NCBI GenBank assembly: GCA_905178155.1
Contig: CAJINV010000003.1
Coordinates: 11,105,737-11,169,736 of the forward strand
Reading direction: 5' to 3'
Origin: Amoebophrya sp. A120
Lineage: Eukaryota > Protista > Dinoflagellata
DNA length: 64,000 bases
The notes under the pieces were generated by a model. That model was not told the origin of the DNA. It saw only the letters and a list, made by a program, of their open reading frames with translations, and searched no databases. Numbering within the stretch: the first letter of the stretch is position 1; the number at the start of each line of letters is the position of its first letter. Position numbers and translations under genes: made by a program. This document shows positions 594 to 58,800 of the stretch, piece after piece.

Positions 594-2771
594 ATGAACA
601 TGGAACGAATGGCCGAGGACTGTCGATATTGGAGAGGCATCCTGGCGTATCGCAAGAACATCAAACTGCTTCACACTGTAAACTTGTGATGCATACAATG
701 CAACACAGACGCGTTTGTCATTGTCTTGCTACACATGCGAGATATTGGGTTTTTCAACGTGTGGTCCCTTAGGAAGCACGGATGGCAGGTTTTCTTTGTC
801 ATGTGTAACGAACTTTGATTCAAAACTTGCATTTGCTGCAAAATCCATAGATGTAGTGAAGCACTTTTTTCGTATGATATTGCGGAGATTCTGCAGGAAG
901 TGGAGACGAGAGACCGAGTTGATGTGGCGCCCCGCGATGATACCAGCCAGGTTCTGGATTATCCTGTGCAAAAGTATCGTACTCGTACTGCAATCATGCA
1001 TTACAAATCTTTTTCTCAAGGTAAATCAGCATTACAGATTTTGCTTCTCATGCTGAGTAAATTTGTAATGCATTTATAGGAGTACGATACTTTTGCAGTT
1101 CATATGGATGCCGCCGTAGCGATGATTGCTAAAGCTGACGACGTGCTAGACAAGGCAAAAGCGTCGAGTGGTGCCTCGGACAAGGTCCATGAGGACAGCG
1201 TGGCACCACGAGGCTGTGATGTAGCGGGTGCTTCACCTCATGCAGTGGCGACGTCCAGCTCGACGTCTGGAGGGTCGTGCGCGACGGCGTCATGTCCTGA
1301 TTGGGATGGTGCTGCGGCAGGAGCAGCTAGGCCTAGTACGACTGCGGAATGTCTTGTTGGACCACGAGCAACCACGACAGCTACGGCACCAGGACGAAAC
1401 CACGTCCACTGCGCGTCTTCATCCAGACAATCCCCGACTCCAAATCTGCTGAGAGGTGCCACGGCTGCCAGCAGTGCGCATAAGAACAAAGCGCAGCGGA
1501 GGAAAAAAGCCCAAGAGGAGGCCGCGGCTGCGAGACATAAAAGCGCCTGTGCTGGGGAGGTGGAGTGTTGTCTGGCCGAGTTGAAGCAGATCAAGACGGC
1601 GGCCGACGCGAGTTTTTGTCGTGCTGTTACGAAATGCCTACGCTTTTACGCAATCGGCCTAGCAGCTTTCGTTGGCACATGCTACGCCCGGAATCATGAC
1701 TTGGATTACGTGGCTCGAATTGCAAAACAAGCCACGGTGGATGCGCTCCGTGACCTCTTTCACCCTTTCACGGCAGCGGGCAACGGTCAGTATGAGCAGG
1801 GCCGTGGTATTATTGCTGCGTTTCGTAACAAGGATCAAGACCCCACTTCAGGCTTTCTGCCCTATCAAGCGGCCCGTAGTGCAGAATTGCTTTCTCGTTC
1901 ATCAGCGGCGTCATCAATATCCCAAGATGAAAATGTAGAACGGGGAGCGGGTGATCGAGAGGAATTGATTGCACCTGACGTGCTTGCTCGTATGGCTAAC
2001 CGACCGGAATACGTACACGCAGCCTTCCGCAGTCACACAACTTCAAGCACGGCAGCAGCTCGGCAAGACAAAGATGCTCTTCTTTCGACGCAGCGCGAGA
2101 GAAATAAGGGCGACGAAACAACAGGCACAGCCATGTTGACTGGTGTGGTCAGTAGCGATCATGAGGAGGGCGGAGAACAAGCGGGCACAGAACGGGGCTG
2201 CAGCGACGGAGGCGATCATGTCTCTGAATCGGATTCAAGCAAGGTGCTGGCGCAACGCGACGGGCATACGTCGATGGCAGCCTGCGCGACTGCAGAGGGA
2301 TCATCAACAAGGTCACAGAATGGGCAAACAGATGAAGAGCGCACGAGCATGGCTGCTGCGGACAAGCAGCTAGTAACCAGCACGTTATTGCACGACTTGA
2401 TGATTGCGTATCCCCATATCCGGGAAATCTTGAAGCTGTACGGTTGCGTGATGCTCATGGCTCTTGGTGCGCAAAACCTGTATCGTTCAGTCAAAGGCGA
2501 ACATGGTATCTTCGGCGCACTGGAACTGGTAAGACAGGAGACACAGGAAGACCAGGGCATGGCTGTGCGTGGTCACGGGCACAGCCATGCCTCCGCTGGT
2601 GATGCAGCTGCACGAGGACCTGCATTCGCAGCAACTGATGACGTTGCTGCCTTTGGATCATCCGGTAGGGCTCAGCAGCCGGTCCGACCAGGGTCGTCTG
2701 CTTCAGCAGTTGCTGCCCTCCCGCGGCGCCCGGGAAAAAACGTTGGTGTCAAGATGCGCAACCGAAAATGA
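594..2771 (+). CDS. Hypothetical low-complexity protein, spliced (approx. exons 594-647, 885-959, 1110-2771; true start uncertain)
   Basis: Removing 648-879 and 960-1104 (each plus one DR) joins MNMERMAEDCRYWRGILA-EILQEVETRDRVDVAPRDDTSQVLD-AAVAMIAK in frame with the 555-aa ORF. No recognisable domain. Confidence 0.65.
648..879. mobile_element. TA-ended introner (degenerate IR)
   Basis: DR TGGCG/TTGCG; TATC...TGCTTCAC versus GTGAAGCA...GATA; internal TTGTGATGC and TTTGTCATG; excision is in frame. Confidence 0.7.
960..1104. mobile_element. TA-ended introner, AAAAGTATCGTACTC family
   Basis: Perfect DR TGGAT; IR TGCAAAAGTATCGTACTC / GAGTACGATACTTTTGCA; excision is in frame. Confidence 0.85.
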
Positions 2772-3540
2772 GGATTTGAAAAGTGGTCATGTGATAAGCC
2801 CCTGCCTGATTACGCTTCGTGTTCTTCTTGAAGACGATGACGCCTACAAGTTCCACGTGCTGCAGACCCAAGGTTTAGACGCCGCATTCGTTCTTACCGC
2901 TCATGTCTAGTGCTAGTTCTAGTTGTAGAAGCAGTAAAAAAAATTATGCGTTTCCGTTTTGCTATTTTGCACTTCATCGACTACTTAAGTATTTTCTATT
3001 TTTTCGAGAGCTGGCCACTGCGAGTCGGCCAGGAAATCTTGTAGTTGCACGCATTTTTAACCACGAGTGGGGGTCATGCCCATGATCTTCACCCATCGAC
3101 TGCAATGGAATCGCTTCTTCGATTGGGTATTATGCGGCACAAAAAGAACTATAAAAGTTTAATATCACGCCGGTTTGATGATTTTATATGTACCACATGG
3201 CACAACCACAAGCAGCTGACTTCATATTGATACACAGTAGACCACGTGCGTCGTTTCATTATGCTTACATCTACCTTTTCAAACCGAAACGTCGTTCTCG
3301 TGCGGTATCTGTGGATTTTTGGCCAGGACTTTAGTTCGCCACAGAATTCACCAACCGACAGTAAACTGAAATGTCATATTGTATACTAGCCTTATCCCGC
3401 TTCCCGTGTCCAGTAGCCTGCAGACTTAATAGTATTCCGCTAGATGAATAATAGCCCTCAGCGTTTCTCTGTGGAAAATCGTCGTCGGCGCTTCAGCACA
3501 GGCAGGCCCATCTGCCTGCTATTTTCAAAGCGCCAGAACG

Positions 3541-5180: not shown

Positions 5181-5572
5181 CTCCGCTGCGGCTTCGCTGC
5201 GGCGTTGTTACTTCGAGGCCGCGTTGCTTCGAGGTTTTGTTGCGGCTTCGAGCGGCCTGCGCTGCGGCTTCGAGGCTTCGCTGCGTCTTCGGGGCTTCGC
5301 TGCGGCTTCTAGGCTTCGCTGCGGCTTCGAGCCGTCGCTGAGGCTTCGGGGCTTTGCTGCGGCTTCGGGGCGTCGCTGCGGCTTCGAGGCCTCGCTACGG
5401 CTTCGAGGCTTCGCCGCGGCTTCGAGACTTCGTTCGCTGCGGCTTCGAGGCTTCTATCTTCGCTTCTATCCTCGCCTCGGGGCTCCTTTGCTTCGGGGCG
5501 CCTCTCTTCGCTTCGGGGCATCTCTCTTCGCTTCGCGGCTTCTTTGCTTCGGGGCTTTTATCTTCGCTTCGG
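5181..5572. repeat. CTTCGAGGCTTCGCTGCGG-type minisatellite
   Basis: Degenerate 16-19 bp tandem units. Confidence 0.9.
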
Positions 5573-7194: not shown

Positions 7195-7366
7195 TTTCGT
7201 TGTTGTTGTTTTTCGTTTCTATTCTTTGTTTTCGTTTTTTGTTTTCATTCTTTGTTTTCGTTTTTCGTTTTTATTCTTTGTTTTCGTTTTTTGTTTCCAT
7301 TGTTTGTTGTCGTTTCTCGTTTCCATTCTTTGTTTTTGTTTTTCGTTTCTGTTCTTTGTTTCTATT
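7195..7366. repeat. T-rich simple-sequence tract
   Basis: TTTTCG and ATTCTTTGTTTT units; same type as ~160-408. Confidence 0.9.
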
Positions 7367-11869: not shown

Positions 11870-13934
11870 ATGGACGTCGTAGCCAGGTTGTCCACGTCTC
11901 GGAGTCGCTCACGATCTCCGACATTTCCGAGCACCAATGGCGACATGATTTTCAACCCGTCCCCCTGCTCGGTTGTTGCATCAGTGTCCTCGCAAGCACA
12001 AGGTCGTGTTGACGCAAAGAACTACAACCAGAGCACGGCCACGACTTTCAGGGCAAATACTAACGAGACTACTTCCAGTAAAAAGACTAGAAGAAATAAA
12101 CTTCTGCCTTTTACCGACTACAAACCCAGCGTGGAAGACTACGAGCGATTAACGATCTTCAGCATACAGCAGCAAGAAGAGCGCGAAGATTTACATAATC
12201 AGCGCGAAGTATTGCAGACGGCCCTAATTCCATACACGGAGGACCTGATTCCCTGTTACCACCAATGGATGACGGACCCCTACCTTCAACAGATGACGTG
12301 TTCCGAGCCCCTGTCGCAGCAGGAAGAACGCGAGGCCTGGCGCGGTTGGGTAACAGATCCCTGTAAATTAACATTTCTGATTGCCGTCCCGGATTCTGGG
12401 CGGGAGTATGATTGTCATGATTCATCTGGTGCTTTGCCTGAAGACACGGTAAATGGTGGCGTCCTAAAAGAGCACATCGCGCCGTCTGAACCTGAAGATA
12501 AGGACGCGCATGATAGTGAAGATGCTCATGGTCATGCCACTACATCAAAGCTCAGTCGACGTCCTGGATGCGCACACGTGAGCCGCAAGAAGAGCCCTGT
12601 TCATAAAGGTGGCGACCAGTCCGATGATCTTGCTGTGCAACTTGATGAATCGCTGCAGCTTCCAAAAATAGCCCTTCCCGCACTACCCGGTGAGCAGCCA
12701 GTGAAGATGTCAGCCAGCAGCAAGGAAACAGGTGCCGAAGCTGCAAGTTTCCTGGCCAACAAAGCCATTGCGGGAAGGTTTCCGTTTCCATGCCTAAGTC
12801 GTCACGAACAGATTGAGAAGCTTAACGAGCGCTTCAAGAGCAACAGGTTGGCGAGCAGCTCCGATCAGGTCTCAGCAACGGTCGTATCCTGCGCAACTGC
12901 ATCTTCTGCTTCTTCGAGTTCATCAAGTTCATCATGTTACTTGTTGGATCACTGTGCGTCCCTCCTCCCGTCCTGTCCGCAGCTGCTTCCCTTTCTGAAT
13001 ATTCAAGGTGTCGTCCCAGCTGGTGCCGCCGTCATAGAGCAGCGGTCGCCCGCGATAACGCCAGGCGATTATCCGCGAAAGGGCTACAACGCCCCAGAAG
13101 TGGATGAGCAGATTGGGAAAATACTACAGCGGCTCAATTTTCAGCCTCAAGGACAAGACACAGAGCCTCAGACAGAAGCCCCCCCGAGGACAGTGGCGCC
13201 TTTCTATTTGCTCGACGGAACATCAAACTATATGCGCCATGATGAGCTGGAAATCGGAGCGGCAAGAAGGCCTCTGACAGCTTCTACAGCAGCTCCGCGC
13301 CTCGCTCTGTGCACGAAAAACCTCGTACCATGCGGGGACGTTAATTTGTTTTGGGATGCGGAAGAGCAGATCGCCGAGCTGAATGTAATGATAGCTCACG
13401 AGAAATTTCGGAAAAAGGGTGTCGCGCGCCAAGCGGTGCGGCTGCTGATGTTATCCATCGCAATAAATACGTCTAGGTCTGGAAGATTGCAAGATTTGTC
13501 ATGGAATTTTTCCATCAAGACCCACAAAATGAAAATCTGGAAAAATGCGAGGCTTAGCATTATATATAATTAGGTCCTGCAGCCCCCTGTTGGTAATGCC
13601 TTTGTATTCTGCCGCAGAAATTGCCCCCTTGCAGCATGGTCAGATATGAGCATCTTTTGCAAGTCATGCAGCACAGATTTTTATGTAAGCCTATAATTCC
13701 CCAGGCCCAGCACGCTCACGCATCAGCATCACTTCCACAACTAGAGTAGCCAGACATATTTGCATTCCATAGGTGTCTTACGCTCACCATGCGCTGCACG
13801 TCAACCATTTTCGGGCAAAGATCTTGGAAGATAATGCTGCTTCGATTCGATTTTTCGAGGACAAGCTAGGATTTGTCCTGCACTCGCGCAAGCCAGTATT
13901 TAACGAGGTTTGGTATGACCTGCGAATAAAATAA
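11870..13934 (+). CDS. NAT9: N-acetyltransferase 9-like GNAT protein (exons 11870-13451, 13777-13934)
   Basis: LIPYTEDLIPCYHQWMTDPYLQQMTCSEPLSQQEE...KLTFLI; GDVNLF...AELNVMIAHEKFRKKG. After removal of the introner: LMSYAHHALHVNHFRAKILEDNAASIRFFEDKLGF...VFNEVWY, stop at 13932-13934. Confidence 0.85.
13452..13771. mobile_element. TA-ended introner, GTCTGGGTCTGGAAG family (degenerate)
   Basis: DR GATGT/GGTGT; GTCTAGGTCTGGAAG ... CCAGACATATTTGCATTCCATA; excision restores the GNAT C-terminus. Confidence 0.85.
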
Positions 13935-18235: not shown

Positions 18236-20950
18236 ATGGCCGCCGATGCCACGGATCACGACGGAGGCCGCCTGTTGCCCCAGGACACGGGTCTCGTTGA
18301 GGCCTGGTTGCGCGGCTACATCCACCGCCTATCAGCAGTTGAGGTTTTGGAGTCCGACTTACGCAGCGTTGTGTTGAATTATTTCCTTGTCACCTATGAA
18401 AGCCTCAGGCTGGAAATCCTCAAAGTGAATAATAATTTGTAATGCAGAAAAACGACTTCAGTTGGAGCACCATTTATAGTCGGCGCATGACAAATTTCCC
18501 GAGCACTCAAAACGTGTCTGTCATGCTAGTTAGGCAAAGGGGTGCCCTTCTCTCATGCTAATCAGAAGCACAATAGTCTGTACCCGTAGAAGCACAATAG
18601 TCGGCCTCCATTGCGTTCTCTGCAATACAGTCTCTTTGGTGTCGCATTTCATGCATCACAAATTATTTCCACTTTGAGGATTTCATCCATTCTGAGGGTG
18701 TCATATCACCGGCAACCAAGAGGCGGCCGAGGCTTGGGAGGAAGAAGCCGGACTCCGTGTTATGCATTGCAAATATGTCTGGGTCTGGAAGGATGTACTG
18801 ACTTGTGATGCTGCATTTGGATACTCCTAAAATCTGTGTTGCATGAACAGCAGAAGAGGTCAGCGTTCGCCACGGGGTCGAGAGGGCATTTCCCATGCAG
18901 TATGGGCAACATCAGGAAGCCCTCGCAAAATCTGTGATGCTAGAGCGTGCATCCCAGACGTCCAGAGTCATGCAAAATGTGCAAGACACCCTCTAGACCC
19001 AGACATATTTGCATTTCATACGTGTGGCCTGCTCCAATTCAAATGCTACATCAAATGGCCCGACTAGTGGTTCATCAGCCTCGTCCTCGTCTTCATCAAA
19101 ATTTGTTCCGCGATCACGCGAAGATCATCATGATCAAGATGTCTCTCGAGGTTGTACTAGACACAACAAGAACTTTAAAGCGAACTACAACGGGAGGTCG
19201 CGTTTCTTCCAGCCACAGGGAGACGATGAAAAGGGAGTTGATGCTGCAGCCTTTGGGTTTGGCAGCATCTGCCCAGCCGGGCTATCATCGCTGCTGGAGA
19301 TGGGCAGCAGCACCACGACGTCCTATGAAAAGAATACCAAAGGAAAAAATATTACTACAACATCCGCAGATCGCGCTAGTACACTTCCCGTCGCGAAAAT
19401 GCACCTGAGGAAGAATGTGCGCAACGCGCTTTTGCGAAACAACCACACTGAGGCCATCCGCCTTCTGGACGATATCTCGCCGAGGATTCTAGGGCTGCGG
19501 CCGCGCGTGCACTTCACGCTGCTCCGGAGGCAATTTCTGCAGCTTCTGTTGGACACGAACACAACGAAAAGTGTGACCACCACGGCGCTGCAGTTTGCTT
19601 ATGAGAAGTATACGCTACGATGAACTCATTTTTAATATTGCAAGAATTGCTCGACCGAGTTGTTACATGACGTGTTGTAGTCGCTCGTTTGTCTTGAACA
19701 TGATGAACCACAGCTGCAAATATAAGCCAATCGAACAACTCACCAGTCTGACGCCGTTCGTGGAACGCCACCCGGAGTTATCACAACAGGAAAAAGTGTT
19801 TTTAACGTTAACGGAATTTGTGATGCAGCAATGCATCACTGAACGCAACGTGCCTAAATTTGTCACGCATAGCATGCTTATTGGGCTACATTTGTGATGC
19901 ATGGTTGCAATCTGTGAAAACCGTTAACGTTAGCACCTTTGTGCTGGATAGGAGTTGCTGGAGAAGCTCGAGGCCTCGATGAAGTTCTATCGCGTGGTCA
20001 AGCGTTACATTCTCAGATGTTAAATGAATTTGTCACGCAAGAGCCGCAACAGTCAAAGGCGCAAGCTTGCTGCTTGTTTTGCATCACAGATTTGGCACGG
20101 ATTTAGATGCTGCGTAGCCCTTGTTCGGAGATTTGTCATGCGAAGCAGCTTGATCATCTATTCTACCGGCGCAAGATAGTTCTGCATGGCAAATTCATGC
20201 AACAGTTCAGAATGTAATGTTTGAGAACGCCATAAGTTCCTGACCTATGATCCAACCGCAGCAGGCAGCAAGAGTGCGCAGAACAACGCCCTTCGCGAGG
20301 GCATCAAGGAGCAGCTTGAAACGGACAACGAAGAGATCGCGGACCGGATCGACCATTTGATCCTGCAGCATTTTCACCTTTCGCCGGTGTCGCAGCTCGA
20401 GTTTCTGTGTCGAAACGTACTATGGTCCGACCGATCGCTCTACTCGCAGTTCGAATCCGACCAGGTGATGATCGTTCGGGGGCTGAGTACTGGGCTGGAG
20501 GAAGGAGCAAAGGAGAAACTGGGAAGCAGCAAGATGAACGCGAGCACGAGTACAAGATGTAAGACAACTACTGGTAATGCGGTGATGCTGCAACCATCCC
20601 CAACTGAAGAAAGATGCATGGAGACCGAAACGGGCGATGCGGAAGATCGCGCGGAAGCGGCAGGTGCAGATGTAGAATCAAGGACGACACCAGCAGCAGG
20701 TGGCGCGACGACCACTCCAAAAGTTGTACTATCATCGAAGATGATAAAACTGACAAAGAGGAATGGTCGAGATGGGAATCGGCAACTGGACGACCATTCA
20801 TGCGCGGGAAGATCAGGTGCAGCTACTGCAGAGATGAAACTGATATTGACAGACACTGTTCCAAAACTGGATACGCATTGCTTAGCGCGCCCTTGTGTAT
20901 TGCTTGGCACAACTTCAACCACGGACCGTGTCCTGCCCAATAAGTCTTGA
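18236..20950 (+). CDS. LisH/CTLH/CRA protein, GID8/TWA1-like (exons 18236-18394, 18711-18760, 19026-19607, 19747-19778, 19956-19987, 20240-20950)
   Basis: Spliced LisH DLRSVVLNYFLVTGNQEAAEAWEEEAG; CTLH MHLRKNVRNALLRNNHTEAIRLLDDISPRIL...VHFTLLRRQFLQLL; CRA ALQFAYENLTPFVERHPELLEKLEASMKFLTY...EEIADRIDHLILQH. Four introners and one GT-AG intron (19608-19746). Confidence 0.85.
18395..18705. mobile_element. TA-ended introner, AAAGT..AATAATTTGTAATGCA family
   Basis: Perfect DR TCACC; TATGA...TCATA; IR GAAATCCTCAAAGTG / CACTTTGAGGATTTC; restores LisH. Confidence 0.92.
18761..19020. mobile_element. TA-ended introner, GTCTGGGTCTGGAAG family
   Basis: Perfect DR CGTGT; 26-bp IR with 2 mismatches; excision is in frame. 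Confidence 0.92.
19779..19950. mobile_element. TA-ended introner
   Basis: Perfect DR GGAGT; IR core TAACGTTAACGG / CCGTTAACGTTA; restores HPELLEKLE. Confidence 0.9.
19988..20234. mobile_element. TA-ended introner
   Basis: Perfect DR AGTTC; IR TCAAGCGTTACATTCT / AGAATGTAATGTTTGA; restores MKFLTYDP. Confidence 0.9.
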
Positions 20951-34579: not shown

Positions 34580-34709
34580 AAAAATAAAAGACAATAGAGT
34601 CAATAAATATGTATCAGTTCTTGTTGGGCCCGCACTTTCACAGCACTCGACTTCGTGGCGGTGCATGTTTTGTTAAATCTTCTGCCACTGTAGACGAATC
34701 AAGTATCTG

Positions 34710-39921: not shown

Positions 39922-42900
39922 ATGGAGGGGCTGGACGATCATCTGTCTGCGCTGAAGACGGAATGGGTCGTGCTGAAGGAAAAGTATTTCTACGGAGAGC
40001 AAATTGACCCGGTGTTTGAGGGGACGGTGCGGGATTTTTGTGAATTCGACCAAGTGATGCAGGAATTGTACAAAAACATCGAACAGTTTATGCGCAGCTG
40101 CGAGAACCTGTGCACGGGGATTCTCAAGGTAGCGGAAACCGTGGTCCAGGGGATGGGCAAAGAGAAAGACCCCCAGATTGCGGCCGAATCCTGCAAGCTG
40201 AAGGAAGCGGCCAACCAGATCACGCGCGTGGATGCCCCCCACAGTGCTATAGCGAAGCTGCGCCGAGACATGGACTTCAACATTCTCAATCCGATGCGGC
40301 AGCACTTACTGAACAACCGTACTACTTGCTCGTCGACATGTTGAGGACGTCATAGTCATTGATTCCACTTTACAATTTCGCAGATTTTTGTCATATGGTT
40401 ATATCGCCATATGTACCGTGCAAAAAACCCTCTTGCAGGGAGCAACATCATGATTTAATTAGAGGAGGGTCACAAACCTAATCCTTAGGTCCGCACCGGA
40501 CTTATGGACCACCCGGCCGGATGGTCCTTAGGTCCGGTGCCCCAAAAGTTACTTTGCGTAACTGCAACAGCTCAGTCCTACTCTGACGGCCGAGCTCTTC
40601 CGTGAGATTCCGCATATATTCAAGGGCAGAGCCACACTAATGCTTGCGCGAGCTATACTTCTCAGAAGGCTTGCACTCGCGCGGTGGAATTGATGAATGC
40701 AATTTCTTGAAAAGCAAAAGGCGGCCTCTATATGTTTTTACTGACGCACACTACGTTAGAGAAAACTGTCCCCACTACCCCGGTTTTCCCCAAATCAAAA
40801 ATTTTTTTATGAACTGATGCAACAACACGGCCACCGGCCGCGCAGCCCGCCCGGATAGTGTCCGCTAGTGGATCTTCTTCACGGATACTTTCTGAGGCTG
40901 TTACGTATGCAATGGAGCAAGCGGGATAGCGGCGCGCAAAAGTCGGCGCATGAGCTGACGGGGCAGCAAGCTTTGTGGATGTGTGTAGCTACTTCGGCCC
41001 CATCCGCGCGTGGGCTACTGCAACGCGGCCCCGCCACACTGGCCGCGCCCAACTTCTGAGGCTCCGGCCTCACCGTTTCCCTGGGGGTCGTGCATGCGTA
41101 CCTTTTCGGGAGGTTTCTGGTGCTCGTTTTGGTGGCCGAAAGTGCGTAGATAGCTGCTTAGGGCCGAAATCCCCAGCATACGTTTTTTTTCTCGCCAGCG
41201 TGTCCGAACATGCACTCAGGGAAACGGTGCCGGCCAGCCTCAAGCGGAGAAGACAGGTCCGCGGCAAGGGGCATTGCGTTCAGCCTTAGGTGGCCGGGGG
41301 GCGGGTCTGGCATGGGCGCCTTGCCCAGGGCGCTGCCTCGCGGGCCCCGAGCTGCTTGCGCCCCAAAAAGCCGGGCAAGGCGTGCAGTGTCTTTGAGTCC
41401 AGCAACACACCTGGGGGAGCGGGCTTCGGTCTGGCCATTCGCGGCGCAGGTCGCTTGCGAAGGGCCCGCCCTGCTTACAATTGGATCGAAAAAAAAAAAT
41501 TGTCTTTGGGGAAAACCGGGGTAGTGGGGACAGTTTTCCCTACCGTACACACGCAATGCCATAGGCAGTTCTGGATTGATGCAGTGCACGAAGTTTGTTC
41601 TTTTCTATGTATTTGTGGGACTTTCTATATTCCCTTTCCGCTAAAAACATCACCCGTTGGCCGACGTCGATCGCGCAGGCACAGTCACAATCATGTCGGG
41701 AGCGGCGCCGCAAGAAAACAGCCAGTACAGCGCCAACAATTGCCCATCACTAGTATTGTTCATCATCACCGCCATCACCTCTACCTCCAATCAATCCGGA
41801 AACGCCGCCCCGGCGACGGTTGCGACGGCGGCATCGGCGTTGGTTGCGTTGACACGGAGGAGGGAGAGGTGGTGGTGGTGACGACGCTGACGCTGCGCCG
41901 GCTGTTTTTCCTGCGGCACCGCTCCCGATACGATTGTGGCTGTGCCTGCGCGAACGACGTCGGTGTGCCTGCACGAACGACGTCGGCCAACGGGTGACGT
42001 TTCATTTTAGCGGAAGACGAATATAGAAAGTCCTATAAATGCATACACTGCAATGCAAAATCAAAAGCGAAACTTTCCAAATAGCTTCAAAAACCAAATA
42101 GAAAGTCCTTCCTAGTGCATATAAAGAAACTTCTTGCACTATCTACGTCAAAACTGCCTATGGCATAGTGCCGCCTCTTCGTGCAGAAATTGAATAACAT
42201 GCAGAATCTCGCGTAAGAGTTCTGCCGTCAGAGTGGGGCTCAGCTGCTGCAACTCCTCCTCATGCAGTTACGTAAAGCAACTTTTGGGGCACCGGACCTA
42301 AGGACCACCCGGCCGGGTGGTCCGTAAGTCCGGTGCGGACCTAAGGATTAGGTTTGTGACCCTCCTCTTATTGTTGTTCGCCTATAAATATTGGACGAAA
42401 TAAGTAGTGTGGTCTATCATGCTCCTCAGCATCGACACTGGAGGAAATTCTTCAAAAAGTATATCTTTAAAGAAACATTACCAACTCCCGATCGCACCGC
42501 CTCAGGCAACCTGAAGAGCAACCTGGAGCAGCGTCGGCGGCTATGGATGTGTCAGAGTTGAAATCGACAAAGTTGAAATAATTTGTAATGCATAAAATGC
42601 GACACAGAGACTGACTCTATTGCTGAAGGCGCAAGGGAGGCAGATTCTAGTGCTGGTAAGGGTCAAGCATTGGGCTGCTGACTAGCATGACAGGGAGCAG
42701 CCATCTTGCCCTAAACAGCATGACAGACTTGCTTCAGAGGCCAGGAAAATTTGTCATGCGCCGATTGGAAACTGCGGGTCCAACTGGTATAGATTTTATG
42801 CATCACAAACTATTTCAACTTTGTTAATTTCAATCCTGACAGTTCCATAGCGGAAGCTGATGGAGTACAAGAGCGCGAAAAAGCAGGTAGAGGAGCTGGG

Positions 42901-45208
42901 TAAGAAAAACCTGGTATCAAGTGCAAAAATGTCTGGGTCTGGAAGAATGCAAGTTTGTCATGCTTGTCTCGCATGACTCTTAAATTTGTCATGCACATTA
43001 CCCAAGAGCCCCATTTTTGTGGCATGCAGAAACGCAGTTTGTCATGCAGAATAGGCAACACCTAGAAGCTCAGAAACTTGTCATGCTGAGCCAGCATTTG
43101 TGGCCTCTTCGTAATACGCTACCCAGCATCACAAGTTTCCAGACCCAGACATTTTTGCATTTGATACCTGGGAAAAACGGACAAAAAGGTGATGCAGGCG
43201 GACGCCGCCCTCACAGCTGCCAAGGCACAGTTTGTCGAGTGCGACCGAAACGTGTTTGAGTGGCTCTACATCCTGGATGAGTACAAGGGCGACATCTTGG
43301 ATAGCACCATCCAGACCATAAAATACCTCCAGTACGAGTTTTTTGCCTCGTCCGCCCACGCGCTAAGCGGCGTGCTTCCGAAGCGGATGGAATTTCGCCC
43401 CATGGTCGAAATGACGCCGGAGCACCTAGAAAACCAGGTCGACATAGAGCTGCAGGAGACCGACCCAAACGAGGAATATCCTGTTGTATAAGGAGTATCG
43501 TACTCGTGGCATCTATGCCTGGCACGACACATGATGTGGTCCTGCTTTTATTTTACCGTAATCATAAGGTGCGTGACAACTTCGACTTCCATGCTTGTTG
43601 GTGGAAAAATCAGACTTTGATCTTGATGTCAACATTCTAGCGCGTGCGCGATACAATACTTCTTTGTTTCGCAATTTATACGGAACAAGAGGAGCCCATA
43701 ACAGATTTTGGAATCAAGCTCATTACCAAGCTCGAACGGGACGGCCGTGCGGTAGAAGAGGAGCCGGTACATCATCTTTTCTGAGGTTATTTTCGCTTTC
43801 ATCTCGAACTCGATTCTTACTCCGGTGTTTTCAGAAAAGAGTCGTATATATGACAAAAGAATGTATTTTTTCTTCTTGCAAAGCTATATGCAAGTAGTCG
43901 TGCACCAAGGCACCACTCGTTCATGTTTTCACAGAAAGTCGCCGTCGATCCCCTGTCGCTTTCGAGCTTGCTCAGCCAGGGATTTGACGAAGCTGACGCC
44001 CGCCGAGCACTTCGGCTACACAACAACGACACCCAGAGTGCCATGGAGTGGATTCTGAACGGGGGCAAAACCGCGAGTTCGGCCTCTGATGCCCAAGACG
44101 GCGTGCGCATGCCCACCACGATTCGAAGGATACAAAAGCTGCGAAAAAAGAGAAAGGATGAACGCGAAAAGCAGCGCGCTGAGAAGGCTGCGCGCGAAGG
44201 CGGTAAGAAGTTCTTGCTCCTCATCGTGTCCGTCTTCGTATGAACTATGATATATGAATTACGTATCATTTGACCTTACTTCTCTAACTCTATGAGGACT
44301 AGCTCAGGAATGCCACTGCTGCATTCACCAAGAAGTAAACACAACTGGGCTGCTGGACGAAGACATGCGTTTTTGCTATATGTTGCTTCTTTATCATCTT
44401 TTGTTTCTTTATTATCTGCTGCAAGCACATGATGCAACAAACAGTTGACAACGTCCGCCAGCCTACATTGGAAGAAATGGCTCAGAAGCAACCGGCTGCG
44501 CCCCCTGTGGACTTGCTCTCGTAGAACTTTTGCTCTCGTGCTTTTCTCGTTTTTATTTGCTCTTGAAGAGCCAGAATATATTGCTCAACTATAGATGTTC
44601 ATGCTGTTGTTGGTACCCACCTCCTCGTCAATTTTTGACGAGCCAGATACTCATACTGTTATTCTTTTGGACCATTGAACAAAACTACATGCTCGTGACC
44701 AACACCCTGAGAATGAATTTACAGATTGGATACCACGCCGCCGACCACTTCCGCCTCTAGTACGTCACCGCCGAGCGGTGGGCCCCCGCCGGATCTTCTT
44801 TCGCTGGATTCCGTCACAGATTTTTCAAAGCCGGTCACACGGCAATCTGTGCCCGAACAGCGCAGCTTCGACCCAAACGACTGCGAGCTCCGCGGGCCCG
44901 GTGCGGGATCGTCCTCTCCAAACACGCCTGCAGCAGCGACTGCTTCAGGAGGAGCCGCAACCGAAATGTCGCGGGAGCAGCTCATGGGTCTGTTGGCATC
45001 GGGTTCGCAGCTCACCCCGACCCAGCTCGCACAGGCTCAGAAACTGCTTGCTGCACCTTCCACTGCACCAGGTGCGGTCGCAAGCGGAGCACAGTCAAGC
45101 AACGTGGCAGCGCCGGCTCCGGTCGCGGCGAGCGGCGGGCAGAATGTTTCCACTGCCAGACCCGCCGCACCAACCGTCGCCTCCTCAATCGATGACCTGT
45201 TCTCCTAG
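39922..45208 (+). CDS. BAR-domain plus UBA-domain membrane-trafficking protein (exons 39922-40318, 42506-42541, 42855-42914, 43172-43476, 43686-43766, 43935-44202, 44445-44520, 44725-45208)
   Basis: Helical N-terminus with BAR-like DPVFEGTVRDF...ILNPMRQHL...LEQRRRKLMEYKSAKKQVEEL...AKAQFVECDR; UBA LSSLLSQGFDEADARRALRLHNNDTQSAMEWIL; two DLLSLD motifs and terminal IDDLFS. Confidence 0.82.
40462..42367. mobile_element. Non-autonomous foldback DNA transposon with TTA target duplication (PIF/Harbinger-like) inside GT-AG intron 40319-42505
   Basis: TTA|GAGGAGGGTCACAAACC ... GGTTTGTGACCCTCCTC|TTA; ~105-bp near-perfect TIR; imperfect symmetry continues inward to a centre near 41820. Confidence 0.88.
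40752..41547. mobile_element. Nested TIR element with TA termini and 5-bp target duplication CACAC
   Basis: CACAC|TACGTTAGAGAAAACTGTCCCCACTACCCCGGTTTTCCCCAAA ... TTTGGGGAAAACCGGGGTAGTGGGGACAGTTTTCCCTACCGTA|CACAC. Confidence 0.88.
42542..42849. mobile_element. TA-ended introner, same family as 18395-18705
   Basis: DR GCGGC/GCGGA; ~55-bp imperfect IR (ACAAAGTTGAAATAATTTGTAATGCATAAAAT); restores QRRRKLMEY. Confidence 0.92.
42915..43166 (+). mobile_element. TA-ended introner, 252 bp, GTCTGGGTCTGGAAG family
   Basis: Perfect DR CCTGG; reverse-complement twin of 56446-56697; restores KNLGKTDKK. Confidence 0.95.
43477..43680. mobile_element. TA-ended introner (old, AGTATCGTACTC family)
   Basis: DR AGGAA/CGGAA; TATCC...TTATA; excision gives DPNEEQEEPITDFG. 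Confidence 0.75.
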
Positions 45209-46878: not shown

Positions 46879-49800
46879 ATGTCAGGGTCATCCGATCGCC
46901 GCAAAAAGTTTGATTTTGGTTTTGTTCGGGCGAGTTCCAGTGTCGTAGCTGCTCTGTTTTGGAGGTGGTCCTTTAGTATCGTACTCGTCGGTCAGCACGT
47001 AGAACTACGCCCGCCCCGTGTAGCGTTTGCAACTACAAACGTGGACCCAAACAATGTGGGACCGACGGGCGTGCCGACGGAGCAAGACTATGCTTGCATC
47101 TTTGAGTGCGCAGAGCGCGAAAATTTTGCGAGCCGTGTACCGGAGACGACGGACACGGCACGGCTCTACGGCTGGAACTCGTCCTGGAAAGAGCCACTAC
47201 GCGGGCAAACGACTGCAGAATCGCTGCGCAATTGCTGGAATCCCTTCTACCGGGCTGAATGCTGCGACAGTGGCGCACTTGCGCTGAGTTACTGCTACGA
47301 AAACAAATATCAGGGCTGCCGCGACAACGCTACAGAGCGCACATTCCCCGTCTCGCATCTGACAGCGTCGTGCGGCTTCGAGCCGGAGGGGGTTCGAGAA
47401 AACGTCGACGTGGAAGTGCAATTGCAGTTGGTAGCGACGCATCCCCGTGAAGAGCTCTCCGTGGTGCACTTGCGAAAGTTTTTCGATGCACTCGGCCTAG
47501 TTGTGAGCAGGAACAGCAGTACTTCTAGTAGCACGACGGGGGCAACTAGTGGCTCGTCCACGACCAGCCCGACGTCCTCCTTCCTCACACTTCGCGAAGA
47601 CGCGGACTATTGTAGTCTTGGGAAAACGCACGTGGATTGCCTCCGGCTGGGTTGCCAGTGGCTTGATGGCGGGGATGGGGTCCCCTATGCCCAGACCTTT
47701 CGGCGCTGGACGCCCTTGAATCGTTGCCGCCCCTGTCTGGATGACCCGTTCCTCTTGCATGCCGAGCCCTGGAGCGCCGTGCCCGGCTTCAACTGCTACG
47801 GGGATCCTGCAAACGCGTGCACGTGCGTCAAAAACCAGCACCCGGGCCTATGTTCCACAAACCAACACATGCAGGTTGCATGCCCGCGGACCTGCGCGGC
47901 CGAAGTTGCGGGAGCGAGCGGTGCTGTTCTTGCCCTTGCCAGTACCGTCATGTGTTCGGTCGTCAACGCGTCTTCTGTGGTGCGCGGCCTTGTCGGCACG
48001 GCAAAAGGAGGTGGCGGGTCGAACTCAAATCCTGGAAATGTTCTCAGTGGCACTACGACGACTTCTACCCTAACAGAACCTTCGACGTTCGACGGGGTTG
48101 GCAGTGCAGGCTTTGTTGACTTCTTGCGCAAAGCCTTTGTCAACATTACCGGACCCGTTTCCGTAGGTAGCACTACAGCCACGACGCTGCAGGCGGATGC
48201 AGTAGAGGACAGCACCAATGAAACTTACCAGCCGCTCGCTGGAGGCCTCGCCTTGCCCTACGGATTCGAGCTAACCGACACACGTTCGCCGGTTCAACGG
48301 GGAGTCGCTGCTTTGGCCAACTACGTGTCGACAGACTGTCGCCAAAAGATTGATCGCGCCCTGGCGTACGTCCGGACGAAATACGGCACGGTTGACTATG
48401 CCTGTGGCGCCGTGGATGGCGGTGTCAACCTCTGCAGTCTCACGGACGTGCAGATCGGCGTGAGCCCGCGAAGCGCCACGTTCGGTGACCTGCAGCGGTT
48501 TTTCTGGTGTCAAGACACAGCCCAGTGCCAGAGCCAGCAGGGCCTGACTGCGCCACCCTACTGCAGCTCGCCACCATGCGACTCCTGTGCGACCCTCACA
48601 GTGTCGGCGCCAGTATCCAGAGTGAAAACGCACCTGGCGGTAGTCGTGACCCTGATTTGTGACCACAGAGCACACCTACAATGACTAGCGCAGGCCTAAA
48701 AGAAATATATGCGGCTCTTCATGCACAGCCCCGCGACTATTAGTGTTTTCTCATGCTGTTAGCTGGGGCGGCTCAATTTGTGACGCTACTGCGCGGCGCC
48801 TCGCCAAGAACAATGAATGAGAGCAATATACATAGATAGACCTAGCAAGAAAGCCATTCACCTCACACATAAGAGCGGGAGCCTTTGACTTGTGTAGCAA
48901 AACTGACTGAAGCTGAAGCTCTGCGGGTACATAGTTTTCACTCAGGATAGGGAGTCGGCGGCTGTGTGGGCTGGGTCGATACGCACTTCAACAAGCGAGC
49001 GGCCACTCGCGACGACTCCGCCCCGCTGGCCACGCGCGCCATCTCGGAGTGGGCAGCTCACAACAAGGGGCTTTGTCAGGGACCCTGTGCCGGGGATGCG
49101 GATTGTATGCACGGGCTCAAGTGCTTCAGCGATCTGCCGGCCGGAGTGGTCACCCCGGGTTGCGTGCTGGCGCAGCACCTAGACGCGTCGACTGCGTTTT
49201 CCGTGTGCGCGCCACCCGCAGGAGAAGACCTGCCAAACTTCTCGGTGGTCACCGGGGTCCCGGTGCTGGACGCCACCCGGGAGGACGTCTGGCGTTACGC
49301 CTACTGCAGCTACCGACACAACTCCAGCGCGGCTTGCCACAACGTGCCGGCCCCTACAGGGTGCTCCCGGCCGCCCTGCGACGTTTGCCCCGTCGCGAAA
49401 GAGGAAGAGCCTGCGTGCGAGTACGGACCTCTGAACGACACGCAACTGGTAGATGCAGAATGCTTGGCGGAAGTAAACCGGGTGCGTCTCGGGCAAGACG
49501 TGTCCTACCTCGGAAACGAGTCCGTCTGGCGCAATGTGACTGGGGTTTCGCAGAACAGCAGCACGTGGGCCGACGTGGCGCGGCGCTTGCGCTGCCACTA
49601 CCTGTCGGCGGGAACAACAAATAATGCGAATAGCGTTAATACGCAAGAAAACACGAACTGCAGCAAGATTGAGCTTTTCTCGTGCTCTCACCCGCCCTGT
49701 GACACGTGCAACGCTTCGCTCGGGATGCAGTACGCGCCACCGGAAGCGCAATGCGCGCTACGGAATAACTTTCTCGCTGAAAACGCGACTACACTAGTCG

Positions 49801-52800
49801 ATGTGGTCCTCGCAACACCATTGGATCTCGTGGTGACTACTTCGCCGCAGCAAGCGGAACAGAACGGTCCCCGAAATTTGCATGAGCATGCACAAGGACA
49901 GCAACCGTCAACTAGAAGAACCGAGATCAACTACCAAGAAAATCTACATCGCGGAGCTGTGGTTTTGCTGCCCGATACGAGGAACGCGGCTGACCAGCAC
50001 GATGCACAAACTTTGCAAAATTCGAAGAGAGCTCTGGACGCCTCACACACAACGACACAGTCTGCGGCCGAACCATGGTTCACCTGCTTGCGGAAAGATG
50101 TTGGCATGGCGGAGGCCGATCCCAGCGGGCTGTATTTAGACGTGGAAGAAAATGCGATTTTATGCAACCTAGCTGATCTGCAAAAGGGGGGCAACGACGA
50201 GGAAGACCACGATCATGCTCACGGCGTCGACCAGCAGTCCACGGCACAACCACCACGACGGCGCGCAAGGGCGTTGAGTGGCTACCAGTGCTGGGCCCAA
50301 ACGCCTGCAGACGAGAGCTTCTGTGAAGACGCATCACAACCGAAATTTACCGACCAAATGCTGTGCGACCAGGAGCCGCAGTGTCACTGGGGCCCGGTGG
50401 GCAACGACGAGGAAGAGGACCAGGGCCACTGCTTCGCGATTGCTGCAAGTGATCAAGCGTTCTGCGAGGATTCCGGCGCACCGCACTAGTATCCTGTGTA
50501 AAAGTATCGTGGACCTCCACGTACATGCGAATATTAGCATTGGTAATAGCCAAAAGTATTTTTGTGCACGGTAGCCCATTTGCTTTTGCAATTCGCTCCA
50601 AATCCAATTTTGAGGTTTCTAATTTGTTGTCAGTGCGATTCTTAGAATTTGCGATACTTTTACAATGAATGACCACCATGACGAAGCCATGTGTAACAGC
50701 GAGCCGCAGTGCGAATACCGCCAGGACAGCAGCAATGCTGGAGACTCGAGCTCCTCGCCTGCGCCTAGCGGCGATGGAGGCGGCAGCTGCTATGGCCGCT
50801 CCAGCATGCATCAGCAGTATTGCGAAAGTTTTAGTCACAGCCAAGCTGATTGCAATAATAATGCGCAATGCGAGTACCGATATACGACCACAGATTCCTC
50901 CTCTTCGACCGAGCCGCCGGCAACGGCAGGCGGATCGGGATCCAGCACACCACATTGCTTTGCGATTAACCCCGGGAATACCATGGACCAAAGCTTTTGC
51001 GAGGATCCGCAGGCTGCTCACTACCACGACGAGGCTATGTGCAACAGCCAAACAGGCAGGTGCGAATTCCGAGCAAACGACGGAGGGACAACCGCCTCGA
51101 GCTCTTCCGCCCCAGCGCCCCCAGGTGGGGCAGGTAGCTGCTACGGAATTCAGAGCATTGATCAGACGCACTGCGACGGTTTTAGCCACAGTGAGTCCGC
51201 GTGCAACAGCGAAAATCTGTGCGAGTACCGTTACACAACTGGGACTGCTTCCTCGACGCAGGCCCCGCATAGCGGCGGTGAAGCGCATTGCTTTGCGATA
51301 GATGGCACGGCGAACCCAGCGGACCAAACTTTTTGTGAGGATCCCCAAGCCGCCCACTTTCACGACGAGGCTATGTGCAACAGCCAAACAGGCAGGTGCG
51401 AATTCCGAGCGAGTGACGCCGGGACAACCGCCTCGACCTCTTCCGCCCCCACAACTCCGAGCAGCGGGAGCTGCTACGGTATCGCTGCAGTGGATCAACA
51501 GTACTGCGACAGCTTCAGTCAGAGTGCAGCGGAGTGTAACAACCATCCTGCTCAGTGCGAGTTTCGCTACGCAGGAGCTTCGACGTCCGGCCCGACCTCA
51601 TCGACGACCACAACCACGACCCCAATACCGGGGCCGCAGCTTCCCGATAATCCGCACTGTCGCTGTCGCGCGAACCCCGGCACCAGCCGCATCGAGTGTC
51701 AGACCTTTCCCGTCCGTCGCGTCGAGGACTGCGCCGAACTTTGCTACATGCGCTCTGCCGCCGTGGGAGTTTCGCCTGCCCAGGCGTGCGGGGGTTGGGC
51801 TGCTAGCGTGAACGTGACAGACACGGAGTTTGCGTCATTCGGAAAGCAGCACAATGCTAGCGACCAGGTCAATGTCATGTGCTCTTTGTATCGAGCCTAC
51901 AACACGACAGCGCTGACCCGGTTCACCGGTAAGGTGCCCTCGACAGGACCTGCTTCTTCTAGTGCAACACCTAGCCAACAGCAGTACCGGAGGGTAATAT
52001 CCGGCCCAGCAAACTGCACGCCCCCGGAGTTCGCGTGGCGCGGGCGGACGGGCGTGTGCGACGCGACGCAAGCGGGCTATTTTCAAGAAAACACAAAGGA
52101 GGTTGTGTACATGTCCGGGTTTCCCTTGATGGGCCACGTAAGTATCCCCGACTTTCTGCTGCCTGACTACCCGGAAGCGCACCACGGCTGTGAGAACCAG
52201 GATTGCAGCTCCACGAGAACGTTTTACGCCACCAAGCCGGAAGATTGCGCGTTCGCTTGCAACCTGTTTGGTGGTTGCATGCGCTACATGGTGCGGACCG
52301 CGTCGAAGGCAGACTTCGCGCACGACGGCAACGTGACCTGCAGTCTGCTGGGAAGCGCGACCACTTCCTCCGAGTTTTCCCTCGATGTTTTTGTCGCGGA
52401 CAAGCGGTGTTACCCGCCGAGCGTGGGCTGGGAGCTATGCATTTTTGCAAAAGTATTGTATTAGTCAGTTGTAGAACTAGAAGTTGTTGCATAATTATGC
52501 CGTTTCCAGCTTCTTCTTGCGGTTGCGAGAACGAGCAGAAACAATGCATATGTATGCGGCAGATTTATCTAAGAGCCGAGATTTGCGTTTGTCATGAATC
52601 AAGATGTTCGAAAATTTTACACCTGACTACTACGATACTTGTTTTGCAGTGGATAGAGGCTGGCGTACGGTGATTTTGCGCGGCTGCACGGAAACAATCG
52701 GCACGACCGGGACGTGCTCGGCGTGTACAATCTGACATTCGCGGTCGGGTTGAATCGCCTGTCCTCTGCGGAGGTGGAGTCGTTCTGCTCCGGGACGGAC

Positions 52801-55800: not shown

Positions 55801-58800
55801 CGGAAAAGCAACTTGCTTCCATCACGCACGAGCGCTCGGTGTACTACGACCCGCAGGGCACCACGTGCCTCCACGACTGCCTGCACAGGTACGAAACCAC
55901 CGTCGAGGAGCAACTTTACGGCGGGTACTCGAAGCCGACCTTTCCGTACACGGTCGGGAACCACACGGCGCACAACCGGGCAGAGTTTTTTCGGTACTGC
56001 CTCCCGGAAGTTGCAAACTTGAACGAGAACCTGACGCTCGCGACAGTGCCGCCCCAATTTGAAATGGACTCGCAGAACAGCACGCTGCGGGGTCTCTGCT
56101 GCCAAAACGGGTACTTGGCGGAGGTGATGCAGTGCTTTCGGCGCCGGTGCGATCCGGCTGGGGACGCGTTCTTCAACCGAGGAAATCCAAATCGGTACCC
56201 CTACTCCGCACCGTACGACAGCCTGTGGCGCCGCGCGTCCACGCGGACGTTCGAGGACCGCGATCTGGAGCGCAGCTTCTCCGCCTATATCCAGGAAAAA
56301 ACACCCATCCCCATCCATTTTTTGCATAACAGATAGTGCATTTTATGCATGTTTTCCATGACAAATTGGATGGGGATGGGTGTTTTTTCCTGGATAGCCT
56401 ACCACGCGATCGAACGGGGCTGCGACATCACGTACCAAGACCTTCTATCAAATGCAAAAATGTCTGGGTCTGGAAACTTGTGATGCTGTGTGGCGTATCA
56501 TGAGGAGGCGACAATTGCTGGCTCAGCATGACAAGTTTCTGAGCTTCTAGGTGTTGCCTATTCTGCATGACAAACTACGTTTCTGCTTGACAGAAAAGTG
56601 GGGCTCTTTGGTAATGTGCATGACAGATTTAAGAGTCATGCCAGACACGCATGACAAACTTGCATTCTTCCAGACCCAGACATTTTTACGTTTGATACCT
56701 TCGGGAAACGAGCAACGTCACGCTTCTGGCGGCCAGTGGCGGACAGGGGATGACGGGCGTGGTGAAAATTAGGGTAAGCCGGGTCTTGGCGGAGAACCGG
56801 TTGCTCAACGTACAGGTGAACGGTGCCACGGAAATTTTCACGCAAGGGCATCTGGATTTCATGCGACTGTCCATCTGGGACACACTGGTGAAAAAGTACC
56901 CGGCTTGGTACGACGACGGCGTGTTTGACGTCAGAGTCGACAACCCGCTGAATCACGTGGAGCTTGGACTCGAGTACGGCGGCGCGAGCGAGACGAGTGA
57001 CCAGAACGGCTTCTCGGAGACTGTGTTGGATTACAACCTCAAGACGTTGATACTCGGCCGGCTGCCAAGTCAGGCCGCCGCACAGCTGAAGATAGACTAC
57101 GCGACGAACGAGCACGGCTTCCACCTGCGCAGCGAGTGGAGCTCCCTCGGGTGCTTCCTCTCCGAGGTGGTTGAAAACTGGCTTGCTCCTCCGGCTGGTG
57201 CGGCAGCAGCCTCATCTGGACCACGGCAGCGAACACTGCAGGCGAGGGTTTTGACACAACAAGCCGAGGAGACTGGTGCGGAGGACGTTTCCGCGGAAAA
57301 TGCGTGTGCTCTGGCGTGCGCTAACTTTCGGTACTTTGCGCTGAGAGGCAGCAGCACGTGTGTGTGCGGCGATGCGTTTGGATCTGCTTTCGCCGGATCG
57401 GCGTCGGTGCTGAGTGTCAACCACACAGAGTGCGCGTGTCGCGCGCCGCAGCACACGCCCGCGACTGACAGCAGCGCTTCTTGTTTGTACCGCACCGGTT
57501 TCGGAGCGGATCAGGGTGCGCTGCGCTGGAACTTCACGTTTCCGCAAAGTAGCGCCGGATACTCCACCCTGTACCACACCGCGCAGAGCCGCCAACTGTT
57601 TGTTCCCCGAACCACGGACACGAGCTGCCTGCAGGAGCAGTGTTCTGCGGAGCTCTGGCACGGATTTGCGCGCCTTGGGATCGGAGACATCCAGGGCCAC
57701 GGGGGAAGGATATACAATTTTTCAGCGTATGCAGGTGGCGTCACGCTTCTGGACACCAGCCAGCGTGCGCTTTTTGACCACCCCGACCTGTTCCAGTTTT
57801 TCGACCAGGCCAGCGCCTTCCCGCTGTCGTACCACTCCGAGGGGAGCAGTGCAATGTCTACCGCTCTGGGCACGGTGATGTCGCCGGACCATTTCTTCCG
57901 CAACCTCGATGTTTGTCTGAACGTGACGAACACCACGGCCCCGGTACGATTCGAGAACTGTTGTCCTTTGCTATCCGCGTACAGCGGATGCGTTCTCGCA
58001 AAGTGTCGGCCCAATGCGACCTGGCGCTATGGGTATGACACGACGACCTTTGACGCCGAGGCGCAAGAAACTACACCGGGTGTCGGTGCAGTCACGTGGC
58101 CCGCAATCTGGCCCGGGATCGCCAGGCAGTGCCAGTTTTCCACCCCGGAAAACATGACCAAGCTGCAGAACCACACCTACCTCGGCTTTCGCGAGCGATT
58201 TGGCTTCTTCCCGCCGCGAGTAGACGTGGACGTGAGCCGGCGGTCCCGCGAAGAGTACCGACGGATCTTCACGGGCTTGTTCGCACAGGAACTGCTGGAA
58301 AGCAACCAGCTGCAGCTGTGGCAGAGTGTCTACGTCAAGAACGTTGGCGTCACCGCGTACGCGCGTCCCGTTTCCGGGTTGAGCTACAACCAAAACGGCA
58401 CGGCCACCGGCTCCGCGCCACTCACCGCGGAGTATCTGCTGGTCGACGCCCGAACTTTTGCGCGAGACCCGGGCGAGTTTGTGGTAGATGGGGCGGAGGG
58501 GGATGAAATGGCCCAGCACGGAATGCGGTGCGACGGGGGGGCGTTTCCGGGTGTGCAGCTGGAACCGCTCTCGGAGCTGGAGTGTGCGCTGCCCGCCGTG
58601 CGCAATTTCGCAGACCGCGCCATTCCTGAGCTGGTTCCAGAAAGTGGGGTAAGTGTCACGTCGCCAACAATGACGCTGTTTCGTGTGAAGCACTTCGCAT
58701 GCGAGTCGTGGTCGCTGGAGCTCATATCGGACGCCGAGCACTGCATTGGCGAGGCTAGCGCAGCAAAAAGTTGGGCGTCGTCAAACAACCTGCAGGTGGT

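Follow-up and report, generated by a model that had tools for sequence, protein, structure and literature searches.

The locus and its introners

The window analysed in this study is a stretch of 64,000 nucleotides of Amoebophrya sp. A120 (contig CAJINV010000003.1), and its subject is a set of introners, TAT…ATA elements with 5-bp target site duplications (TSDs), which share an internal motif. The window is GC-rich eukaryotic DNA in which the genes of the + strand are broken by AT-richer inserts of 100-400 nt. The host genes (22100-27400, 32000-33000, 39900-45200 and 46800-63600) comprise two genes recognised by eye, for an SRPK-like kinase and for a BAR-like protein, matches to the CTLH and SET domains, and a very long cysteine-rich protein of surface type.

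The elements were sought with a motif-blind search for TA-ended inverted repeats accompanied by a 5-bp direct repeat. This search gave 30 candidates, of which the 18 with TAT…ATA ends were kept and 12 that were weak, overlapping or TAC-ended were discarded. Five elements were added by eye, which brought the total to 23 (Table 1).

Table 1. Introners of the window, with their direct repeats and motif sites (offsets run from the element end)
Positions	Element	TSD or flanks	Motif sites and remarks
648..879	introner	TGGCG/TTGCG	single inward site, offset 36 (683, CTTGTGATGC)
960..1104	introner F1	TGGAT	sites 998(-), 1029(-), 1062(+); minus pair 31 bp apart
13452..13771	older F0-type introner	GATGT/GGTGT	variant site TTTGTCATGG, offset 44
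18395..18705	introner, F6-like	TCACC	inward sites at offsets 42, 44; RNA lacks element + 5 nt
18761..19020	introner F0	CGTGT	offsets 42, 73, 171; spliced as element + 5 nt
19779..19950	introner, F17-like	GGAGT	offsets 39, 81, 113, same direction; spliced as element + 5 nt
19988..20234	introner F7	AGTTC	offsets 42 and 145 from each end; spliced as element + 5 nt
22499..22802	decayed F0-type introner	CGGGG	sole site a variant (score 9.7); exact removal nonetheless
23016..23313	decayed introner	GATGA/GACGA	sole site the variant TTTCTCATGC (score 10.3); exact removal nonetheless
24014..24184	introner F11	GACGA	66-nt arms; offsets 31 and 62 from each end; joint absent from listed RNA joints
24246..24509	introner F0	TCCAA	offsets 40, 71, 125, 164, 197; spliced as element + 5 nt
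31052..31392	decayed introner	CTTCG/CTTGG	variant site, offset 43; RNA contig restarts at 31397
32080..32464	decayed introner, right end CAT	CAGCT/CGGCA	one exact site 32149 (offset 70); by eye
37410..37650	introner, F5-like	GCAGC/ACAGC	offsets 35, 136, and 150 from opposite end
42542..42849	introner F6	GCGGC/GCGGA	offset 41 at both ends, plus inner sites
42915..43166	introner F0	CCTGG	offsets 40, 71, 124, 163, and 32 from opposite end
43477..43680	decayed introner	AGGAA/CGGAA	one weak site; by eye
48614..48949	older introner	GCCAG/GGGAG	one TTTGTGACGC site; excision opens 300 codons each side
50490..50671	decayed F1-type introner		zero scored sites; predicted excision opens 299 codons each side; by eye
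52436..52655	decayed introner		sole site TTTGTCATGA at 52588; predicted excision opens 300 codons each side; by eye
56288..56396	introner F8	GCCTA	variant sites at 32 and 64 from right end
56446..56697	introner F0	CCTTC	layout as 42915-43166, inverted relative to + strand
61633..61803	decayed F1-type introner	CCGAG	zero scored internal sites; beyond the range of the sequence-only reading

A motif confined to the introners

The motif is the word (A/G)TTTGT(C/G/A)ATGC, which was counted in a strict form, TTTGTVATGC (V being C, G or A), and in a relaxed form, YYTGTVAYGC. The window contains 21 exact matches to the strict form on both strands, while 100 dinucleotide shuffles of the window gave 0.58 +/- 0.77 (maximum 4), and the leading A or G is present in all 21. 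Every match lies inside the 23 elements (5,725 bp, GC 0.44), and 18 of them fall in the 18 elements taken from the motif-blind list. The strict word was absent from the remaining 58 kb of the window, from 2,570 bp in nine conventional-intron intervals (GC 0.37-0.47; eight with GT..AG ends as set, the ninth mis-set) and from 15,000 bp of GC-matched window tiles. Shuffling within the elements left a mean of 0.12 strict matches and a maximum of 2 in 1000 shuffles, and the most frequent interior 8-mers, counted once per element, were pieces of the word. An enrichment over AT-matched background, the lack of which would have refuted the sequence-only reading, was borne out.

The earlier statement that most elements carry the motif depends on the form used: the strict word occurs in only 10 of the 23 elements and the relaxed word in 14, the others being mostly decayed copies. 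The examples that had been cited were mostly right. Four direct and one inverted TTGTVATGC are found in 42915-43166 and two copies in 37410-37650, as had been read; 'several' copies turned out to be two in 960-1104, three in 18395-18705, and two TTGTVATGC among five scored sites in 24246-24509. The three copies claimed for 19779-19950 are two exact copies and one TTTGTCACGC variant, and the single copy claimed for 56288-56396 was not found, this element having zero exact copies and TTTGTCATGG only.

The motif in a second assembly

Scanning for the end of F0, the most common family, retrieved 166 loci (420 kb), all of JACKZZ01, from 12 of the 64 parts of the collection, in which copies are about 68-92% identical to the window elements. 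With overlapping loci counted twice, these loci hold 597 strict matches versus 7 for the variant with a T at V; element-like DNA (115 kb) contains 558 of the 597, and the remaining 305 kb contain 39, of which several are visibly within elements that were not called. Of 266 non-redundant elements called motif-blind, 148 of which belong to the bait family F0, 261 carry the relaxed word and 206 the strict word. A logo anchored on GTNAYG alone returned an A-rich position followed by T, T, T, G, T, C/G/A, A, T, G and C, and V is a T in just 2% of the sites.

The 266 elements formed 22 clusters, which were merged to 14 families for statistics. Comparison of the motif-masked consensus sequences showed that 99 of 105 family pairs had a Z below 4, so that the arms are unrelated in these pairs, as the sequence-only reading had it, while the six others show interior similarity, clearly so for F3-F6 (Z 8.0) and F7-F21 (Z 8.2). 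Some of the motif sharing is thus inherited, because of these two pairs. The element ends of some families resemble the word, and the element end taken as a first motif copy scored high in some families only. Comparison of coding and non-coding insertion sites found only 4 copies with AT-rich flanks. At L148:362, L137:163, L095:521, L067:4650 and L056:1715, the sequence in front of the motif looks foreign and closes with a C/T-rich run, which gives the impression that another element was inserted right in front of the word.

Spacing of the sites

Sites were scored with a matrix trained on the window only. In the second assembly, no inward site begins before position 31, and start positions peak at 31-32 and 39-41. 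The copy nearest an element end points inward and lies 31-33 or 39-43 bp from it, and it is often succeeded by others at steps of 31-33 bp. With weighting by family over the 14 families, 84-91% of the first sites within 60 bp were at 31-35 or 39-44, compared with 24-25% in the null (1/1000), although part of this excess reflects the arms, since the null admitted sites from position 17. Among same-strand spacings of 10-60 bp, again family-weighted, 61-67% were 29-33, compared with 10% in the null (0-1/1000). The modes are 31 and 41-42. In 11 of the 14 families, the 31-33 spacing was shown by 30% of the members or more. These spacing windows were suggested by the window data and about nine families are common to both sets; in families unmatched in the window the 31-33 spacing occurred in 9/11 (F3), 9/12 (F4), 2/4 (F9), 1/1 (F20) and 0/1 (F21) members. 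Successive spacers are only 26% identical, which rules out tandem duplication as the origin of the 31-33 spacing. An end pairing of the 12/23 type was also rejected, the 121 pairs of ends being long/long in 86 cases, long/short in 34 and short/short in 1.

Selection on the letters of the motif

Changes were mapped by parsimony on trees of the eight largest families and compared, for the seven core letters, with a context-matched background rate. The observed/expected ratio of the core was 0.13 on internal branches and 0.41 on tips, while that of V was 1.1-1.4. The difference between branches was retained when only gap-free, stable columns were used (0.16 internal and 0.44 on tips, Fisher p 2e-5) and when only isolated changes were counted (0.23 and 0.65, respectively). 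In 273 of 285 elements called TSD-blind (12 with at least 3 mismatches were excluded), the TSD mismatch was 4.0% per position, from which we derived a decay after insertion of 2-3% per site. The tip changes of six of the seven core letters amount to 1.9-4.2%, close to this rate, as expected if these letters were held during spread and drifted afterwards.

These results bear on the idea of a word without function, left over as a relic from common descent or from tandem duplication. The interior homology of F3-F6 and F7-F21 and the likeness of some element ends to the word would suit it. It does not account for a core that changes 2.5 to 8 times slower than its surroundings while V does not, for the near absence of T at V, for the 99 pairs that share nothing else detectable or for the dissimilar spacers. 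The selection test largely refutes a relic, which we regard as scarcely credible. We conclude that the elements, which are of a known kind, contain a genuine cis-element that is spaced and under selection.

Ends of the elements and removal from RNA

Contigs from four runs of one sample skipped seven elements as element + 5 nt as well as seven GT-AG introns; the RNA status of these runs is an automatic guess, none being on record as RNA. A DNA-like run carries 24486-37563 unspliced, and in this run the summed read depth on elements reached 121,385 versus about 30 in unique bins. The raw RNA runs X9 and X10 cover 3 of the 30 bins of the locus. In X9, 251 raw RNA reads from another locus switch to foreign sequence after the position matching 18709 and have an adapter at 18589, which we take to be a template-switch adapter; a transcript start appears to lie inside another genomic copy of the 18395-18705 family, to judge from the reads matching 18589-18709.

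The family ends begin with T, A and T in 30 of 30 cases, as the caller imposed, and have an A at positions 11-15 in 22-27 of 30, which was not imposed; the third terminal base is a T at every window end except two decayed ones. The 5-bp TSD is perfect in 227 of the 285 elements called TSD-blind and in 235 of the 266 second-assembly elements. Three elements with mismatched repeats set the cut after the fourth repeat letter: 23016, by its splice joint, and 31052 and 32080, by contig ends. In these elements (23011-23318, 31047-31397 and 32075-32469), the 5' cut is one base before TAT, giving a donor N-TAT like the GTAT/GTAC donors of local conventional introns, and the 3' cut is 4 nt past ATA, without an AG rule. 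If one rule covered all elements, the intron would be N-TAT…ATA-NNNN, which agrees with the A120 splice pairs of Table S4 of PMC7789003, where T is second in 9 of 9.

Recognition in DNA or in RNA

A coding model called the strand of 117 of the 266 elements, with a within-locus agreement of 65/72. The sites have no polarity relative to the transcript: among the 117 stranded elements, a proximal site is present at the 5' end in 67, at the 3' end in 67 and at neither end in 35. Family F0 showed no orientation bias (29 versus 40, p 0.23), and families insert in both directions, both of which are seen within the window for 42915 and 56446. The identity of V did not match between ends (45 of 121 agreeing, with 43% expected by chance), and 22499 and 23016 were spliced exactly with variant sites only, though the TTTCTCATGC variant is common, with 134 copies, and may be functional. 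These results agree with recognition of the double-stranded DNA and speak against a branch point, for which a fixed polarity near the intron 3' end would be needed, or a paired RNA code. By our own arithmetic, the modal spacings of 31 and 41-42 also suit turns of B-DNA better than those of an RNA duplex.

Branch points follow the pattern UnAy, which the reverse complement of the motif, GCAU-B-AC, resembles, with V located at the n. An RNA signal read by the removal machinery, for instance a branch point or a paired motif of the Euglena type, would be in keeping with this likeness, with the presence of the word in 261 of 266 elements and with the local pairing of forward and reverse copies in predicted folds. 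U1 snRNA was not detected in Amoebophrya (PMC7789003), and an internal code with fixed spacing governs the non-conventional introns of Euglena (PMC12501133). Nevertheless, the 3' end lacks a good proximal site in 50 of the 117 stranded elements, 21 of the 117 are without any good site in the GCAUBACAAA orientation, sites in this orientation are not more constrained (0.64 versus 0.41), asymmetric families are not biased in orientation, V is unpaired and conventional introns lack the word. We consider such a signal highly improbable; a removal site at the RNA level is unsupported because of the missing polarity, the missing pairing of V and the exact splicing of 22499 and 23016.

Other features of the window

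A 563-amino-acid open reading frame (ORF) without a Pfam match holds two introners and is flanked by satellites and T-rich blocks. The satellites, long and degenerate, belong to the types GAGGCTTCGCTGCTTC and GGCCATGATCTGGCACC; together with the T-rich blocks, a near-identical pair, they occupy 1-130, 3500-7160, 170-410 and 7200-7370. A 1.9-kb insertion (40457-42370) is located in the intron at about 40319-42500; its long inverted ends start with GAGGAGGGTCACAAACC, with a TTA repeat on both sides, and it is presumably PIF/Harbinger-like. Two elements are nested in it: one of 796 bp (40752-41547) has TAC…GTA ends and a perfect 5-bp repeat, the other of 440 bp (41606-42045) is an inverted TAT…ATA element without a repeat, and neither contains the motif. 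The word GTACTAG has 15 copies on the + strand and 6 on the - strand of the window (e.g. 11783, 14502, 36161 and 63833). Like AGTACTAGA (5 versus 0), it is strand-biased, and some copies are found shortly past gene ends. The two words are a possible 3'-processing signal.

A proposed role in transposition

We propose that a putative transposase common to the families probably binds the motif in double-stranded DNA, as a subterminal site. The sequence-only reading had offered a common cis-element read either by a transposase or by the removal machinery, and after these analyses the cis-element stands, under selection, with the first option favoured. What favours it is the fixed spacing from the end and between copies, the stronger constraint on internal than on tip branches and the loss in decayed copies. 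A good site was present in 13 of 14 window copies with close family matches versus 2 of 9 decayed copies (p 0.001). The anatomy of terminal inverted repeats with a 5-bp TSD and the very high read depth of the elements may be added as supports, with the phased subterminal repeats of Hermes as a precedent. A multimeric cut-and-paste enzyme would hold the TATS..AAAA end together with one or more sites three or four helical turns apart. If the enzyme read this layout, any sequence having it would be mobilised in trans, and families would then be free to diverge between the sites. What chiefly guides removal from RNA would be the ends of the elements, with cuts 1 nt ahead of TAT and 4 nt past ATA, rather than the motif.

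Several observations weigh against this proposal. The split between young and decayed copies uses BLAST scores that include the motif letters, and the second assembly is not fully independent, because of the families shared with the window and the sampling through the F0 end. Good proximal sites are missing at both ends of 73 of the 266 elements. With TSD mismatch as a proxy of age, site density did not differ between TSD-perfect and TSD-mismatched copies (1.33 versus 1.26 per 100 bp, p 0.31). The continuous 10.3-bp phasing over whole elements at which the window had hinted was unsupported in the second assembly, which showed no helical periodicity at longer range, past offset 55 (R <= 0.23); of the phasing, the discrete distances of 31-33 and 39-43 bp are all that holds up. 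A transposase was sought without success in 20 ORFs of the window and in 40 of the 92 long ORFs of the second-assembly loci, and Farhat et al. (PMC7789003) report none in A120. The constraint also persists on tips (0.41-0.65), with 6 changes observed versus 12.4 expected on the shortest tips. One core letter, G8, changed in only 2 of 869 tip observations, compared with 16-25 expected from the TSD-based decay in the TSD-blind set and an estimated 10-16 in a stricter set of trees. Neutral decay does not explain this scarcity. Either the decay is overstated by the repeat mismatches and the tips consist largely of spread that was not sampled, or recognition of the site takes place in resident copies; the near-freeze points to such recognition and away from a role in transposition only, and it leaves room for a role at the DNA level in resident copies.

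Other searches were also negative. Among elements up to about 6 kb in the loci there was no autonomous partner, the longest element being 834 bp, and Rfam gave no family at gathering score. Viral contigs had no match to the F0 end; a generic pattern of end plus motif gave 120 single matches in them and one poly-A pairing, without a convincing element, which we took as chance.

The behaviour of G8 suits a host protein, chromatin or architectural, that would bind the word in the double-stranded DNA of resident copies, aid transposition and perhaps mark the copies for silencing or for removal as they are transcribed. In each of the 8 families G8 hardly changes on tips, and its tip change is graded by the quality of the site, from 0.2% in good sites to 3.0%, 4.8% and 7.8% in weaker ones. 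A tree-free count over 777 consensus sites gave 4 variants at G8 versus 27 at C9. A change of G8 to A would make a TAT-type end, but avoidance of a cryptic splice site was rejected as an account of the frozen letter, since it covers transitions only and transversions are scarce too. The evidence for orientation-free recognition of DNA fits a host protein equally well, the sites also lie deep within elements, and one protein for many families is simpler than one transposase that reads many different arms. However, the neighbouring core letters decay on tips at about the TSD-derived rate, which would wreck a host site too, elements with variant sites only are still spliced exactly, and the strict motif is absent from the 58 kb of non-element DNA, including intergenic stretches, so that it is not a general regulatory word. 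We find a host protein arguable but unlikely, though it is the leading alternative. Still bolder, and quite improbable in our view, is a word acting as an identity code at the DNA level, read by one protein that would mobilise all families and flag the resident copies to which it is bound, so that they are removed precisely as transcription proceeds. The recognition of introns would in that case begin on double-stranded DNA, with the frozen G as the footprint of the protein.

How the tens of thousands of non-GT-AG introns of Amoebophrya spread and are removed is an open question, and the genome paper (PMC7789003) found no family-specific motif. With a word that is shared, under selection and regularly spaced, the many families become a single system, and the search for the protein gains a specific bait and specific mutations. 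The word also tells two tasks apart, the inner sites being likely for spread and the ends for splicing, and the frozen G offers a sharp test of the DNA-level reading of resident introns.

Comparison with known systems

The hAT transposon Hermes, whose BED domains bind precisely phased subterminal repeats (PMC10368747), resembles the introners in having short repeated sites inward of the terminal inverted repeat, in both orientations, with asymmetry between ends and an exact position relative to the end. Its repeat is 4 bp, while the word described here is 10-12 bp with a spacing of 31-33 bp. The introners share the 5-bp TSD of the hAT5 group, an exception among hAT (PMC12730594), and the phased subterminal repeats of hAT and hAT5; PMC6004678, considered as a source on hAT5, describes 8-bp elements. 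They differ from classical hAT elements in having a TSD of 5 rather than 8 bp, and a T rather than the G that is the third nucleotide of classical hAT termini (PMC1131882), and in doubling as precisely spliced introns. Membership of hAT is not shown by these likenesses.

Transib and RAG (PMC1131882) are alike in the 5-bp TSD, in a conserved terminal block followed by a variable spacer and a second conserved block, and in two spacer classes about one helical turn apart. Identity with them fails on the termini, CAC in their case and TAT here, and on the 12/23 pairing; the second block here is also not an A-rich nonamer in that orientation. The non-conventional introns of Euglena (PMC12501133) are likewise hairpin-ended and non-GT-AG, and they too have a conserved motif inside at a fixed distance, but theirs is within 3-8 nt of the junctions and base-paired, whereas the one described here is at least 31 nt inside, repeated and unpaired at V.

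In anatomy, the window elements match the published Amoebophrya introners of the A120 type (PMC7789003, PMC12130899), with which they share ends of TAT, about 7 variable nt and an A run, 5-bp direct repeats, a length of 100-400 nt, many families, exact non-GT-AG removal and splice pairs with T second. A shared motif or spacing rule was not found in the literature on these introners, as far as it is represented by PMC7789003 (figures aside), PMC12130899 with its supplements except files 13 and 14, and the review PMC11282704. The elements are already published, and the second-assembly, strand and selection tests are the contribution of this analysis. Farhat et al. (PMC7789003) ruled out a general transposase-mediated mobilisation of A120 introners; unlike their account, the motif argues for one shared mobiliser.

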